Source: an uncultured delta proteobacterium
GTDB taxonomy: Bacteria; Desulfobacterota; Desulfobacteria; Desulfobacterales; JAFDCJ01
Length of the DNA stretch: 64,000 nucleotides
Assembly: GCA_963769935.1 (NCBI GenBank)
Contig: CAVYNY010000013.1
Span: 64,001 to 128,000, forward strand
Direction: 5' to 3'
Made by a program: the position numbers and the translations under genes. Positions 40,250 through 49,952 of the stretch are shown piece by piece. Within the stretch, counting starts at the first letter, position 1. Every line of letters starts with the position of its first letter. The notes beneath the pieces are model-generated. The model was not told where the DNA came from and ran no database searches. It saw only the letters and a program-made list of their open reading frames with translations.

Positions 40250-40408
40250 GTGGGATGTGGGAATGCGGAAGGTAAGAAGGTGGGAAGGTAAGAGGGTAAG
40301 AGGGTGAGAATTTGGGAAGTTGGGAAGATTAATTCCGATATAGCCTAATCAACTCAATCAATTCAGTCAACCTAATCAACCCAATAAACATAATCAACTT
40401 AATCAACG
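40250..40408. repeat. Purine-rich 8-mer tract and (C)TAATCAAC 9-mer tract
   Basis: GGAAGGTA AGAAGGTG GGAAGGTA AGAGGGTA AGAGGGTG, then about 7 copies of xxAATCAAC. Confidence 0.8.
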
Positions 40409-40428
40409 AACTTATCGGAGGTAGTTCC

Positions 40429-40807: not shown

Positions 40808-40841
40808 TCCGCCCTTGGATAATGTGCTTTCCAAGGGCGGA
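40808..40841 (-). terminator. Hairpin directly after msrAB
   Basis: TCCGCCCTTGGA / TCCAAGGGCGGA perfect 12-bp stem. Confidence 0.65.
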
Positions 40842-40845
40842 TTAA

Positions 40846-42003
40846 TTAATTGGAAGAGCTTTGCATATTGCTCGTAAAGAGCTTCGCATATTGCTCGTAA
40901 CCCTCTTCTTTTAATTTATCCTGCGGAATAAATCGCAGGGCCGCTGAGTTGAGGCAGTAACGCAAACCCGTGGGCGGCGGCCCGTCCGGAAATACATGGC
41001 CCAGGTGGGAATCGGCGTGTTTGCTCCTGACTTCGGTACGGACCATAAACAGGCTGCGGTCCTGATGCTCTACGATATTGCCGGGCTCCAGGGGTTTGGT
41101 GAAGCTGGGCCACCCGGTGCCGGAGTCGAATTTATCCGTGGAGCTGAACAACGGTTCACCGGAGACGATGTCGACGTAAATTCCCGGTTTATGGTTATCC
41201 CAGTACTCGTTGCGAAACGGCGGCTCGGTGCCTTCCTGCTGGGTAACATTATACTGCATGGGGGTCAATTTTTGCTTTAAAACGGCATCGTCCGGTTTCG
41301 TATAGCCGGTTCCGGCGGTAGCGGAAGTATTCTGCATCTTTTTGGGGGCAGCTGTTTCTTCTTTGCCCCAGACCTGCGCCAGGAATTGGTCGCGGCCGGA
41401 GCCATAACGGTAATACTTATAACGTAAGGGGTTTTTCTTGTAGTAATCCTGATGATACTCCTCGGCCGGATAAAACGGCCCCAGCTTGACGATTTCGGTG
41501 ACAATGGGTTTGTCGAACCGCCCGGACTGCGCCAGCTTGGCCTTGGATTCTTCGGCCAGACGTCGCTGTTCATCGTCCTGGTAGAAAATGGCGCTGCGGT
41601 ACTGGGTACCGCGGTCCACAAACTGTCCGCCCGCATCGGTCGGATCAATGTGTCGCCAGAAAACATCCAGCAGCTGCTCGTAAGAAACCTTGGCCGGATC
41701 ATATATCACCTGGATGGATTCCGCATGCCCCGTAACGCCGGAGCTCACTTCCTCGTAAGTCGGGTTCTCTGTATGTCCGCCGGTATATCCGGATATAACT
41801 TCCACCACTCCGTCCACTTTTTCAAAATCCGATTCCGTGCACCAGAAACATCCGCCGGCAAAGGTGGCTCGTTTCAAATTTTTATCGTCGTATTGTTTTT
41901 TCATATTGGCAGTTGCATCCTGCTTTTGACTTTTTGCTTGTTGAATGCCTATCAGCACCAATCCCAAAAGAATGATGATGCCGACCCGGATTGTAGTTTT
42001 CAT
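40846..42003 (-). CDS. msrAB: Exported bifunctional methionine sulfoxide reductase MsrA-MsrB
   Basis: RBS AGGAGG before ATG 42003; signal or anchor sequence; GGCFWC, GHAE and AEEYHQDYY (MsrA); [23 protein letters not shown] and RYCLNS (MsrB). Confidence 0.95.
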
Positions 42004-42079
42004 GTTAATCCTCCTGTTGCTCTCAATTAAACTGAGCAATGCTTTAAAAATAATAAGCAGCCGTTGCCGTCAATTCAAG

Positions 42080-42379
42080 CTACCTTGCGGTTCCGATATA
42101 GGTCCCCGCTTTTTTCAGAATATGCTCCATCTCAGCAATGGTGACCCGCGACGGATCATAATAAACTGTGTTTATCTCTTTGAATTTCTGAAACCCTTTT
42201 TCGATCTTTTTTACTCCCGGCAGCCCATCCAGGGCTGCTTGGCCCACATCATATCACTGGACATAAAACACGGTTTTGGCTAATGCGGGATCCTCGGCAT
42301 GTGCGCTGGCGTAACTGCCGAGGATTAAAAGCGTAAAAAAGGCCAACCTGAGGCCAAATTTTCGATTGTGTTTTGGCAT
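42080..42379 (-). CDS. Unannotated exported mini-MsrA-like selenoprotein, 99 aa, Sec42 at UGA 42254-42256
   Basis: MPKHNRKFGLRLAFFTLLILGSYASAHA-EDPALAKTVFYVQ-U-YDVGQAALDGLPGVKKIEKGFQKFKEINTVYYDPSRVTIAEMEHILKKAGTYIGTAR*. RBS AAGGGA, SECIS-like hairpin, gapless alignment to the MsrA N-terminus. Confidence 0.82.
42220..42238 (-). promoter_or_regulatory. SECIS-like hairpin of the mini-MsrA gene
   Basis: GCAGCCC-UGGAU-GGGCUGC, a perfect 7-bp stem starting 15 nt after the UGA with GG in the apical loop. Confidence 0.8.
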
Positions 42380-42470
42380 GGTTTTATCCCTTCGATGGTT
42401 GTTATGCCGGACTGATTATATCGCTATTTTTGGTTCTGTCTTGTTTGATCTGTAATTTAATCAGTCAGCT

Positions 42471-42508
42471 TCACGGGATCATCACGAAATTATAACATTT
42501 CTGTCACA
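42471..42508 (-). promoter_or_regulatory. OmpR/PhoB-type direct-repeat box array
   Basis: TCACG 42471, TCACG 42482, TAACA 42493, TCACA 42504: exact 11-bp period, followed on the minus strand by a TAAATT -10-like hexamer. Confidence 0.7.
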
Positions 42509-42522
42509 AAATTTGCGGAGTC

Positions 42523-42752
42523 CTTACCTTGGATAAACCAGAACCCAAAAAGCAGGCGGTTGCTCGAATTTCATACTTTTATTTAGAAACTATTTAACTA
42601 AAATCACGTCGTGTTTGCACATGAATTATGCAGCAATCAGATTGAATATTTTAGGTATGTTACCGATTTTAAATTTAAAAGACAGAGCGAAGCGATACAA
42701 CAGATATTCAATCTTCAATTTTCAATATTCAATTCCGGCTTGTCCGGGTTAG
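42523..42752. repeat. MITE-like element with imperfect terminal inverted repeats, carrying a four-helix-cassette-type arm
   Basis: CTTACCTTGGATAAACCAGAA ... TTCCGGCTTGTCCGGGTTAG; internal ATATTCAATCTTCAATTTTCAATATTCAAT is nearly identical to 28969-28998. Confidence 0.65.
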
Positions 42753-44242
42753 GGGCGGGTGCGGGCAGGGAGTCGGGCCGGCAGGGAAAATGTAAAACAG
42801 GTGCCGGTTCCCGGTGCACTTTCGACCCTGATGGTTCGATCGTGCAATTCTAGGATGCGCCTGGCAATGGCCAGTCCGAGTCCGGAATATCCTGTTTTGC
42901 CGTTTTGCGTTTGATCTCTGTGATAAAATCGGTCAAAAATAAACGGCATATCTTCCGCAGGGATACCGCAACCGGTATCGCTGACACGCACGGCGATATC
43001 ACCGTTTTGCGGGCTGAAAGCCAGCCGGATCGAACCGCCGGCGGGGGTGTGGCGCACGGCGTTTTCGAGCAGGTTTTCGATGACCCGCTCAATCATGGCG
43101 ATGTCGGCGTTTGCGAAAGGCAGGCTTTGATCAAGGTCGACCTGAATGGCGATTTGTTTTTCACGGGCGGATAAATCGAATTTTTGTACCACATCCTGCG
43201 CCAACTCGCCGATGTTAAACGGTTCATAGCGGGCCTTGGTCTCATGTGAATCCAGTTTGGCGAGTTCGAAAAGCGCATCGACCAGTTTAGCGAGCCTCTC
43301 ACAATGCCGGATGGCAATCTCAAGGTGTTGTTTGCGTTCCTGGGCGGTCAGGTTTTTGTCTTTAAGAAAAAGCGTTTCGATATACCCCTGCAATGTGGCC
43401 AGCGGCGTTCGCAGGTCGTGGGACACGTTGGCGACAAGTTCACGGCGCGACATGTCCGCCTTTTGCAATTTTTCCATTTGCAAATTAATGCGTTCAACGA
43501 GCTGATTAAACGTAAAAGTCAATCGGTCGATTTCATCGCCCTGCTGCCGGTCCTTGACGCGGATGGATTGCAGCCGGGCCGCCGTCTGCGCCCCGTCGAA
43601 GGAATCCATAACGGAGGCCAGGCGTCTCAGTCGACGGGTCAGGTAGGCAAACAACAGCAATCCCGTAACCAGCGCAAAAAAAAGGCTGGCGGCGATCCAC
43701 CAGAAGCTTAACCGCAGGATGTAGCTGCCTTTGAGGTTCTGGACGATGCTGTCGAAAATTTCTCCGCCCAGGATAATGTACAGATATCCCTGCAGCGGGC
43801 CCTGTTCCGGAATGCGCGCGGCCGTAAAAACTTTTTTTCTTCCCGGATTGCGGGGGTCATCGCCGGTCAGCGGAAGCACGACGTCCTTTTCAAACCAGGA
43901 CTTGATCGGCGCCATATCAACGCGGTCCAGCTTGACCTTGCCGGGCGGTGCCGAATAGGCCAGGATCCGGCCGGCGGGATCAAGCAGGTAAACCTCAATG
44001 CTGGGATTGACCACCATCAGCATGTTAAAAATATCTTTGAGCCCCTTCTCATTGATGCGATGCGCCTGCATGAGGATCTTTTGGGCGACGATTTGCCGGG
44101 CCAGATTGCGGTTGAGTTTCTGAACGACTTCCTGCTGGTACATGTCCGATGCAAACTGGGTGACAATGACAATCGACACGCCCAGCAAACAAAACACCCC
44201 GAGCAGTGTCATCGCAAGTTTTGCGTAAAGGGATTTAACCAT
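42749..44242 (-). CDS. HAMP-domain sensor histidine kinase
   Basis: Two TMs around a periplasmic domain, HAMP, NVSHDLRTPL, NLLENA, DTGCG and GLGLAI; TGATG coupling to the regulator. Confidence 0.93.
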   Translation of the reverse strand: MVKSLYAKLAMTLLGVFCLLGVSIVIVTQFASDMYQQEVVQKLNRNLARQIVAQKILMQAHRINEKGLKDIFNMLMVVNPSIEVYLLDPAGRILAYSAPPGKVKLDRVDMAPIKSWFEKDVVLPLTGDDPRNPGRKKVFTAARIPEQGPLQGYLYIILGGEIFDSIVQNLKGSYILRLSFWWIAASLFFALVTGLLLFAYLTRRLRRLASVMDSFDGAQTAARLQSIRVKDRQQGDEIDRLTFTFNQLVERINLQMEKLQKADMSRRELVANVSHDLRTPLATLQGYIETLFLKDKNLTAQERKQHLEIAIRHCERLAKLVDALFELAKLDSHETKARYEPFNIGELAQDVVQKFDLSAREKQIAIQVDLDQSLPFANADIAMIERVIENLLENAVRHTPAGGSIRLAFSPQNGDIAVRVSDTGCGIPAEDMPFIFDRFYHRDQTQNGKTGYSGLGLAIARRILELHDRTIRVESAPGTGTCFTFSLPARLPARTRP

Positions 44243-44964
44243 CAGCCGGATTCTTTCAAAGCTTCGCTGTCTACAAACTTGTAGCCGACCCCCCATACGG
44301 TGAGAATATATACGGGATGAGCGGGATCCTTTTCGATCTTGGCGCGCAGCCGATTGATGTGCGAATTGACCGTATGCTCGTAGCCGTCATGCCCGTAGCC
44401 CCAGACTCTATCCAGCAGCTGGGACCGGGTATAGACCTTGCCGGGGTTGCGGGCAAAATGCAGCAGCAGGTCGAATTCCTTGGCCGTCAGGTCGACGCTT
44501 TGACCCCCGCAGCGGGCAATTCTTTTGGTTGGATCAATCTCCAGGTCGGCGGCCCGGATGACGGCCGGCACAGCCTCACCGGTCCCCTCCGTTAATTCCT
44601 CCACGCGTCTTAAGATGGCTTTGACCCTCGCCAGCAGTTCTCTGATGCTGAACGGTTTGGTGACGTAGTCGTCCGCCCCTATTTCCAGCCCGAGCACCCG
44701 GTCCATTTCCGAGGACTTGGCGGTCAGCATCAGGATGGGCAGGTAAGCGGGCCTGCGGCGCAGGCGCCGGCAGACTTCCATGCCGTCCAGCCCCGGCAGC
44801 ATCAAATCGAGGATCACTAAATCATAATTAACAGAATTTGCTCTGGCAAGCCCTGTTGGACCGTCAAAGGCCACATCGACCTGAAATGCCAGGTCCCGCA
44901 GATGATTTTCTACAAGATGCGCCAGGTCCCGGTTGTCTTCAATGATTAGAATTTTTTTGGTCAT
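44242..44964 (-). CDS. OmpR/PhoB family response regulator
   Basis: ILIIED, LDLMLPG, GADDYVTKPF, LTAKEFDLL, HINRLRAKIE and TVWGVGYKF. Confidence 0.95.
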   Translation of the reverse strand: MTKKILIIEDNRDLAHLVENHLRDLAFQVDVAFDGPTGLARANSVNYDLVILDLMLPGLDGMEVCRRLRRRPAYLPILMLTAKSSEMDRVLGLEIGADDYVTKPFSIRELLARVKAILRRVEELTEGTGEAVPAVIRAADLEIDPTKRIARCGGQSVDLTAKEFDLLLHFARNPGKVYTRSQLLDRVWGYGHDGYEHTVNSHINRLRAKIEKDPAHPVYILTVWGVGYKFVDSEALKESG

Positions 44965-45130
44965 GCGGGTGGTCACTTGATGGATTATTGACGCTTGACG
45001 ATTTAAGGATTTCAATCGTTTTTAATTTTATAAAATGCCAAATTGCCTCAAAAAAGTAAATAAAAGAATATTTTTTTCATTTGACAAAATTTCTGTATTC
45101 AATAATCTTGTTCGCAGATCGATCCAAGCA

Positions 45131-45328
45131 ACCTATTTCGAGACCGAACTGGTTACCCAGATCCGCAACGATCCGGAGCGCTTCAATTTCATCAACGAAC
45201 GCACGCCCATGGGCCGGTGGGGCTATTTGCCCGAGCTGGAAGGCGCCCTGACATTTCTGGTCTCCCCGGCCTCGGATTTCATCACCGGCCGGACGATCTA
45301 TGTCGACGGCGGATGGACGATATGGTAG
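45131..45328 (+). pseudogene. C-terminal fragment of an SDR oxidoreductase
   Basis: TYFETEL...RTPMGRWG...ASDFITGRTIYVDGGW with no Rossmann GxxxGxG or YxxxK upstream. Confidence 0.8.
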
Positions 45329-49229: not shown

Positions 49230-49952
49230 TTAGTCGAAGGCCATCTCCGTTTTCCAGGCCTGCCAGACTTTTCCGACCAGATCCGGGCCCGGCTTGAGCG
49301 TCGTTTTGCCCGGTTTCCAGCCGGAGGGCGTAGCTTCCTTGCCCTTTGATTCCCGGACAAGCTGGAAGGCCTGGACTTGCCGGAATGTTTCCCCCACGTT
49401 GCGTCCGACCGGCGGCGTCAGCACCTCGTAGCCCTGAATCACACCGTCCGGATCAATGATAAAGCGGCCCCGGTTTTCGACCCCGGCTTCTTCATTGAAG
49501 ACGCCATATACTTTTCCCACCTTGCCCCCGGTATCCGACAACATGGCAAAAGGAATTCCGCCGTCCACCATTTTTGACAACTCGTGGTCATCCCACATTT
49601 TGTGGACAAACACACTGTCGATGCTCATGGATATTACTTCAACGCCCAGCTTCTGAAACTCCGGGTATTTTTCAGCAACTGCTGAAATCTCCGTTGCTCA
49701 GACAAAGGTAAAGTCGCCCGGATAAAAACAGAGCAGTACCCATTTGCCTAAAAACTCCGACAGCTTAAGTGAAATAAATTGTCCCTTGTGATATCCCGGT
49801 GCTGCAAAATCCGGCGCCTTTTGGCCGACATGAATCATAGCTGAAATCTCCTTGCGAGTAGTTGGAATTTCGTTTTTGGTTTCTTCTTCAGCAATCTCAC
49901 CGACCGGACCGCCGGTCGGTCGTGCACAGCCGACATCCATCTTTTCCGCCAT
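49230..49952 (-). CDS. prxU: Selenocysteine-containing peroxiredoxin, Sec at UGA 49698-49700 (240 aa)
   Basis: [31 protein letters not shown] continues in frame into the 132-aa track ORF; U occupies the peroxidatic Cys position of FTFVCPTE. Confidence 0.93.
49670..49687 (-). promoter_or_regulatory. SECIS-like hairpin of prxU
   Basis: UUUCAGC-AGUU-GCUGAAA, a 7-bp stem starting 10 nt after the UGA with G in the loop. Confidence 0.8.

Follow-up and report, generated by a model that had tools for sequence, protein, structure and literature searches.

A predicted envelope methionine-oxidation regulon with a small, likely exported selenoprotein in an uncultured Desulfobacterales bacterium

Four co-oriented genes lie on the minus strand (positions 40846-44964) of the 64,000-nucleotide (nt) stretch analysed here (the window), which comes from contig CAVYNY010000013.1 of an uncultured delta proteobacterium (assembly GCA_963769935.1). 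They encode an OmpR/PhoB-type response regulator, a sensor histidine kinase, a 99-amino acid (aa) protein interrupted by an in-frame UGA, and a signal-bearing fusion of the methionine sulfoxide reductases MsrA and MsrB. We propose that this locus is the core of an envelope methionine-oxidation regulon, and that the 99-aa product is a likely exported selenoprotein serving as a redox accessory that is induced with the other genes, and not as an electron donor that MsrAB requires. Taken as a whole, this reading has a probability slightly better than even (about 0.55), and its parts differ in strength. The assignment of the locus to the core of such a regulon is probable, judging from the sequence comparisons described below. 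The assignment of a function to the small protein, by which its single selenocysteine (Sec) or cysteine (Cys) would intercept oxidants or oxidised thiol intermediates, is tentative, falling somewhat short of an even chance among the alternatives.

Evidence for a small selenoprotein family

Reading through one TGA (42254-42256) extends the small open reading frame at 42080-42379 to 99 aa, comprising a hydrophobic N-terminus, predicted to be a signal peptide over approximately residues 1-28, and a 70-aa domain with the motif FxVx-U-YDVG, in which the UGA would specify Sec42. A preliminary description of the window had called this a selenoprotein gene, and the conserved UGA, the adjacent hairpin, the natural Cys counterparts and the Sec machinery of the genome all agree with that call. 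Matches were present in 20 of the 61 genomes searched, and TGA occupied the Sec site in all 21 matches from relatives that cover it, two partial matches falling short of the site. Further Sec loci were collected with a TGA-containing DNA pattern, protein-pattern locus searches having yielded none; at least 119 genome contigs matched, their record titles including Desulfobacterales, Syntrophales, Nitrospirota, Myxococcota and SAR324. The 80 Sec loci analysed are those matches with flanking sequence, and these pattern-selected loci keep conserved coding on both sides of the TGA. Across 400 genomes of the phylum there were at least 17 matches: 11 with TGA, one with Cys, one with Ser, one partial and three weak and HMA-like. 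Cys was found at the Sec site in 44 of 73 scorable representatives (among 150 listed) and Trp in 26, the latter likely reflecting UGA read by table 4. Cys forms were also recovered from 98 metagenome stretches, 80 of which were analysed, giving 68 distinct loci.

The hairpin at 42220-42238 has the properties of a bacterial Sec insertion sequence (SECIS). It begins 22 nt past the UGA, with a 7-bp stem, a 5-nt UGGAU loop in which the second base is G, and a folding energy of -18.4 kcal/mol. These values lie within all four limits given in the available part of PMC13188914: a loop of 3-9 nt with G in the first two places, a stem of 4-16 bp, a distance of 16-37 nt from the UGA, and a minimum free energy of -7.5 or below. 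In the alignment of this element 88.6% of cells were paired, with two-sided change at three pairs. Since the search pattern had itself fixed two of the five pairs, Sec and Cys loci were contrasted at synonymous positions that it left free: the loop G was kept in 80/80 Sec loci vs 7/22 matched Cys loci, and one stem pair in 80/80 vs 17/22. The genome additionally encodes tRNA-Sec, and a SelB scoring over its cut-off. On this sequence evidence, the 99-aa gene is a genuine selenoprotein gene of a family with Sec and Cys forms. Sequencing error and pseudogenisation were both considered as origins of the UGA, and were ruled out by the TGA in relatives together with the synonymous-site contrast. In 78/79 Sec loci and 74/77 Cys loci the domain follows a hydrophobic, signal-like stretch, and from this N-terminus the protein is likely exported.

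Variant members were also seen among the loci L170 (G068), P0094, P0099, L020 and L346: some have Ser or lack Cys at the site, one copy is frameshifted, and another, where a contig ends, appears to be fused to part of a regulator. A tRNA-Pyl (G000:C11:285724-285797) raises the possibility that the genome uses pyrrolysine besides Sec.

As far as the searches reach, this is an uncatalogued family. A Pfam search with the small protein gave no match, and an NCBIfam search gave two, both far under cut-off (33 bits vs 275 for NF041383, and 26 vs 95 for NF041115); the natural Cys members likewise had no NCBIfam or Pfam match over cut-off, their best E-values being weak. The MsrA-like middle region of NF041383 (VPGUxxT thioredoxin-like selenoprotein type 2) was weakly matched, free of gaps, by all 68 Cys members, whereas the small protein stands alone, with neither the thioredoxin domain nor the VPGU motif, and no full-length NF041383 protein was found in 41 relatives. 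No entry of the 119-family selenoprotein table in the available part of PMC13188914 (Table 1, in which a few rows lack a model) fits the family; the models of two entries, TsoY (UxxV, 366 positions) and DF, did not match the small gene, and both entries are unrelated. Database entries for the family are unnamed, 'hypothetical' or, once, 'CopZ', and gene callers truncate it, such that the entries are either 55-aa fragments following the UGA or Trp read-throughs.

The two-component system, its operator and the predicted regulon

The regulator (240 aa; 44242-44964; PF00072 and PF00486) and the kinase (497 aa; 42749-44242; HAMP, HisKA and HATPase domains) overlap by 1 nt, between the ATG of the latter and the TGA of the former. 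No listed NCBIfam equivalog, HprR and CusR included, was matched over cut-off by the regulator, and the pair scored 165 vs a cut-off of 353 for HprR, 127 vs 423 for CusS and 171 vs 293 for TIGR01386. The periplasmic domain of the kinase is PDC/Cache-like. Its model (pLDDT 82) gave a best Z of 10.0 to KinD/CitA-type domains, at a root-mean-square deviation (rmsd) of 3.3-3.7, and the fold search returned generic PDC/Cache matches, with CusS at Z 7.1. The kinases sharing this domain are here called clade 1. Methionine (Met) residues in the periplasmic domain had been noted at the outset as possible detectors of oxidation, and the comparison bears out their conservation: Met76 is kept in 38/38 clade-1 kinases and Met74 in 35/38, making Met74-Leu-Met76 (44015-44023) a candidate oxidation switch. 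The sensor also has the motif H-M-x-M. Kinases of a second clade (clade 2), which also accompany the small gene, instead have a short periplasmic loop, unrelated to the clade-1 domain, which contains Met in 25/25 distinct loops.

An operator array ahead of the small gene and msrAB had likewise been noted, and corresponds to four GT(G/T)A direct repeats with an 11-bp period (42471-42507). In counts by kinase clade that include duplicates and kin, a GTGA-type box was found behind 34/35 clade-1 and 0/44 clade-2 kinases (background 0.009 per 450 nt), whereas a CTTTAC-type box, also with an 11-bp period, was found behind 37/44 clade-2 and 0/35 clade-1 kinases (background 0.0002 per 450 nt). A looser motif with slightly different clade limits placed the GTGA-type box behind 33/35 vs 1/40. 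By these counts, the predicted operator is conserved and specific to the clade-1 kinase. Between kinase and operator lies a short element (42690-42753) common to many unrelated contigs, with high depth and loose ends, which is probably a dispersed repeat.

The four-copy array occurs in only two places in the 8-Mb genome. When a matrix built from 33 sites of other genomes was scanned over this one, the highest-scoring sites were those of the window (48.0), of a gene for a 112-aa exported Met/Lys/Glu repeat peptide (G000:C20 near 367436; 40.8), and of a gene for a 217-aa twin-arginine molybdenum (Mo) enzyme, from a family with no NCBIfam model over cut-off (G000:C9:171725-172499; 39.0); both genes stand behind the same operator box as that in the window. 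The next sites scored 25.8 and 16.5, and the maxima in five shuffled genomes were 12.6-23.5. The regulon predicted in this way, which joins MsrAB with a Met-rich peptide, points to envelope methionine oxidation. The clade-1 box also stands ahead of 8/24 Cys small genes without a nearby kinase (reverse-strand control 0/137). The fourth matrix site (G000:C13:598901; 25.8, just above the shuffled maxima) precedes a gene for an 834-aa exported protein.

Gene neighbourhoods across genomes

Conservation of the gene neighbourhood had been suggested as a check on the linkage of these genes, and elsewhere the small gene is indeed linked both to msrA/B and to the two-component system. Among the 49 Sec loci with at least 3 kb on each side, msrA/B was within 3 kb in 32, an Oxidored_molyb gene in 10, and either in 40, while a kinase was within 5 kb in 32. 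For the Cys forms, msrA/B was within 3 kb in 52/68 distinct loci, and in 18/20 of those with at least 1.5 kb on each side. The gene order of the window recurs in many of these Cys loci. Hence, as the Cys forms share the same order, the module is not selenium-dependent in general, contrary to the preliminary description. In the closest relatives, 16/20 matches were near an msr gene, a Mo enzyme, a clade-1 kinase or a spondin gene. At the level of whole genomes, msrB is present in all 20 that have the small gene, which is absent from all 11 that lack an msrB match.

The linked Mo enzymes carry PF00174 (sulfite-oxidase family), and a 218-aa type gave no NCBIfam match at E 1e-12. Met-rich exported peptides were encoded in eight loci, and further recurring neighbours were spondin-domain, YHS-selenoprotein, propeller and DUF7482 genes. 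Bacterial spondin-domain genes (NF038123) stand behind the same kinase or operator at L054, L161, L173, L174, L176 and L335, which may hint at their function; the neighbour at L054 was considered as a Mo enzyme, and this was ruled out, as it is a spondin-domain gene.

MsrAB and the role of the small protein

MsrAB (385 aa; 40846-42003) starts 76 nt past the end of the small open reading frame, and has a hydrophobic N-terminus. Both of its domains score over cut-off with their catalytic Cys (PF01625, PF01641, TIGR00401 and TIGR00357). It holds just three Cys, the GGCFWC pair of MsrA and the LRYC of a GTGWP-type MsrB, which agrees with the original observation that the MsrB has no resolving Cys and no Zn-binding CxxC. 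The parallel statement that MsrA has only the CFWC pair is correct as a count, but this MsrA may still have a resolving Cys: for B. subtilis-type MsrA, the available part of PMC13478556 gives the second Cys of GCFWC a recycling role that has been proposed but not validated. Similarly, the reported absence of DsbD and CcdA is true of the locus but not of the genome, which has three such genes, all away from it. A CcdA adjoining an exported TlpA-like CxxC protein (G000:C28:5190-6573) and a DsbD-type gene (G000:C13:152257-154149) are candidate electron paths to the exported MsrAB.

These features bear on the proposal that the selenoprotein supplies, in trans, the recycling function missing from MsrAB. 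On that proposal, Sec would attack the sulfenic acid formed on the single-Cys MsrB (or on MsrA), and then be resolved by another reductant. The placement of the small gene immediately ahead of msrAB, in the window as well as in many Cys loci, would suit such a partnership, as would the lack of the GCGWP Cys in 73/73 linked MsrBs (77/78 linked MsrAs being GCFWC), and the presence of msrB in all 20 small-gene genomes. However, control MsrBs of the order, for which 30 loci were fetched from 61 msrB matches, are of the same type: all 28 that were readable, three of them linked to the small gene, had GTGWP, and 24 were fused to a GCFWC MsrA. Moreover, the small gene adjoins only 6/61 msrB matches, has no match to this query in 30/50 msrB-bearing genomes (many of which are incomplete), and often has a Mo enzyme or spondin gene beside it in place of msr. 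A single Sec cannot alone act as a two-electron dithiol relay. Hence, with GTGWP/GCFWC MsrAB standard in the order, few msrB genes beside the small gene, and DsbD/CcdA encoded elsewhere, the recycling proposal is unsupported, and we regard it as unlikely. The small protein might alternatively act on the sensor, resetting or shielding its Met as a feedback modulator. Its gene is often the first past the kinase and operator, and kinases are near it in most well-flanked Sec loci, yet it pairs with two unrelated sensor domains, and in relatives the small gene is missing beside 9/14 matches to the clade-1 kinase, making this role very improbable.

The fold of the small protein suggests two further roles. 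Its model (pLDDT 95) has a beta-alpha-beta-beta-alpha-beta, HMA-like fold, for which HMA domains gave the best Z (8-9.8; rmsd 1.8-2.6), while the N-terminal halves of MsrA gave the lowest rmsd, 1.3-1.6 A over 66-68 residues at Z 7.0-8.3, a Z near 8 being only moderate (4lwj, Z 8.3, 1.3 A over 66 residues; 5fa9, Z 7.7, 1.4 A; 3bqe, Z 7.0, 1.4 A). Foldseek returned HMA domains only, none at E 0.001, and profile comparison was nearly tied (58 for MsrA, 54 for HMA). The protein could thus be a minimal MsrA-derived catalyst for the reduction of a sulfoxide, chloramine or persulfide, working by itself, as a dimer, or together with a partner that supplies the missing residues. Consistent with this, Sec lies in gap-free register with the MsrA catalytic Cys, G[FW] aligns with GY, the E and YDP are common to both, and PF01625 was weakly matched by 6/68 Cys members, as against none for PF00403 at E 0.01. 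Yet the 17-residue segment carrying the active-site Glu is deleted, the C-terminal half is missing, U-Y-D stands in place of GC(U)FW with the Trp absent, and the pocket residues named for H. pylori MsrA in the available part of PMC8000184, which include C-terminal Tyr/His, are mostly absent. Together with the higher Z of HMA domains and the near-equal profile scores, this leaves the catalyst quite unlikely. The genome does encode a second MsrA (G000:C11:57542-58213), a separate true Sec-MsrA in which TGA occupies the catalytic position in frame (G-U-FW). A hairpin lies downstream of this TGA, the N-terminus resembles that of a lipoprotein, and the reading frame appears broken near the C-terminus. 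The small protein could instead carry metals or metalloids as an HMA-like chaperone, within a Cu/Ag (or Hg/As) regulon governed by a Met/His metal sensor; Msr would then be induced alongside it for the repair of Met-rich proteins that bind metal. HMA domains and MerP were the best matches by Z and by Foldseek, size, a similar C-terminus and (for MerP) export are shared with MerP, CopZ and NF041115, that UxxU metal-binding selenoprotein model was weakly matched by 31/68 Cys members, the sensor has its H-M-x-M, and a MerA-like oxidoreductase and VTT gene accompany roughly 10/80 Sec loci. Conversely, six residues of the CxxC loop are deleted, leaving a single Sec or Cys and neither MxCxxC nor UxxU; a motif scan of 160 loci found no P1B-ATPase, no multicopper oxidase, one RND and two HMA CxxC; and no metal transporter is in the predicted regulon of this genome, the neighbourhood being one of Met repair rather than metal export. 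This role is therefore comparably doubtful. Lacking the Glu segment and pocket residues of the one, and the CxxC loop of the other, the small protein is neither MsrA nor a canonical HMA protein.

Transcription and surroundings of the locus

The four genes are co-oriented, as first described, all being on the minus strand, and a plasmid comparison gave no match. In four runs of a single metatranscriptome study, contigs of relatives (90-99% identity) cover msrAB, the kinase and the regulator, with part of the small gene in one run; in these runs, for which only contigs were available, no listed piece joins the small gene to msrAB. The terminator-like hairpin reported after msrAB is real as a hairpin, a 12-bp stem directly past the stop codon and between convergent genes (40808-40841; z -2.6, with 3/200 shuffles equally good), but it has no U-tract and was absent from the list of a terminator scan.

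Other features of the window include a 23-nt tandem duplication within the 3' end of msrAB (40854-40899), tandem runs of 8 and 9 nt in the next intergenic region (40268-40415), and, upstream of the regulator, the C-terminal part of an apparently truncated short-chain dehydrogenase (45035-45328). A PrxU-type peroxiredoxin is present as two open reading frames (49233-49952), probably a known selenoprotein with UGA read-through (NF040737).

Discussion

Of the two functions first suggested for the selenoprotein, recycling partner and oxidant scavenger, the latter is the preferred reading. In the mechanism we favour, oxidation of a periplasmic sensor Met would activate the kinase, and the regulator would bind the 11-bp repeats to induce the small gene together with msrAB and the genes for the Met-rich peptide and the Mo enzyme. 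The peptide would act as a sink for oxidant, while MsrA/B, and possibly the Mo enzyme too, would re-reduce Met sulfoxide. The lone exposed Sec or Cys of the small protein, on a scaffold like the catalytic half of MsrA, would intercept oxidant or oxidised thiol intermediates, and would itself be re-reduced by the DsbD/CcdA-TlpA proteins encoded elsewhere, or by sulfide.

Several observations weigh against this reading. Neither msrA/B nor a Mo enzyme was within 3 kb in 9/49 well-flanked Sec loci, and the link is looser in the closest relatives, where some contigs are short, and where 20 matches had msr within 3 kb in five cases, a Mo enzyme in seven and either in 10. The locus counts are not independent, because the sets include kin and near-duplicates. 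The linked Mo enzymes miss the MsrP cut-off (NF003767, 207), the best of five tested from other loci scoring 94.5, and score better to sulfite dehydrogenase models than to MsrP. Met76 is just one of 23 invariant columns among the 136 of the sensor, and the clade-1 box stands ahead of only 1/33 Sec small genes without a nearby kinase. Furthermore, Met/His sensors and HMA folds fit Cu/Ag handling as well, and the strong sequence conservation around Sec is more suggestive of a dedicated partner or a catalytic site than of simple sacrifice.

In its regulatory logic, the predicted regulon is a variant of systems already known. E. coli HprSR (also HypVW/YedVW), which acts with MsrPQ, similarly combines an OmpR-type two-component system, a conserved periplasmic Met and an adjoining exported Met sulfoxide reductase, and its Met72/Met153 are a precedent for Met-based sensing (bioRxiv 2021.09.09.459708, available part). 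It differs in that the regulator and kinase of the window are under the HprR and CusS cut-offs, and in that the window has a thiol-based MsrAB, a selenoprotein and its own GTGA operator, with no MsrQ seen. The SigF/NrsF-MrpX-YedY1 system of Azospira likewise joins a Met-rich periplasmic peptide and a Mo-family enzyme in a small predicted regulon (PMC4436054, available part), whereas the regulon described here is under a two-component system, adds MsrAB and the selenoprotein, and has a Mo enzyme that is not MsrP by NCBIfam. In contrast to this shared logic, the literature searched appears to hold no description of the small protein family, of the two sensor families or of their operators.

A bolder proposition is that the family is a free-standing minimal MsrA core bridging HMA metallochaperones and MsrA, a periplasmic redox shuttle or catalyst shared by thiol- and Mo-type Met repair, and coupled, in anaerobic sediment bacteria, to two Met-switch kinases that evolved independently; we offer it as speculation that is unlikely to hold in full. 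With its 70-residue domain, the small protein is a natural structure intermediate between HMA domains and MsrA. It adds a predicted selenoprotein family, in records labelled Desulfobacterales, Nitrospirota, Myxococcota and SAR324, and the comparisons define two hitherto uncharacterised two-component families with predicted operators and a candidate Met-switch. The predicted regulon suggests how relatives of sulfate reducers may guard their envelope at oxic boundaries without MsrPQ.

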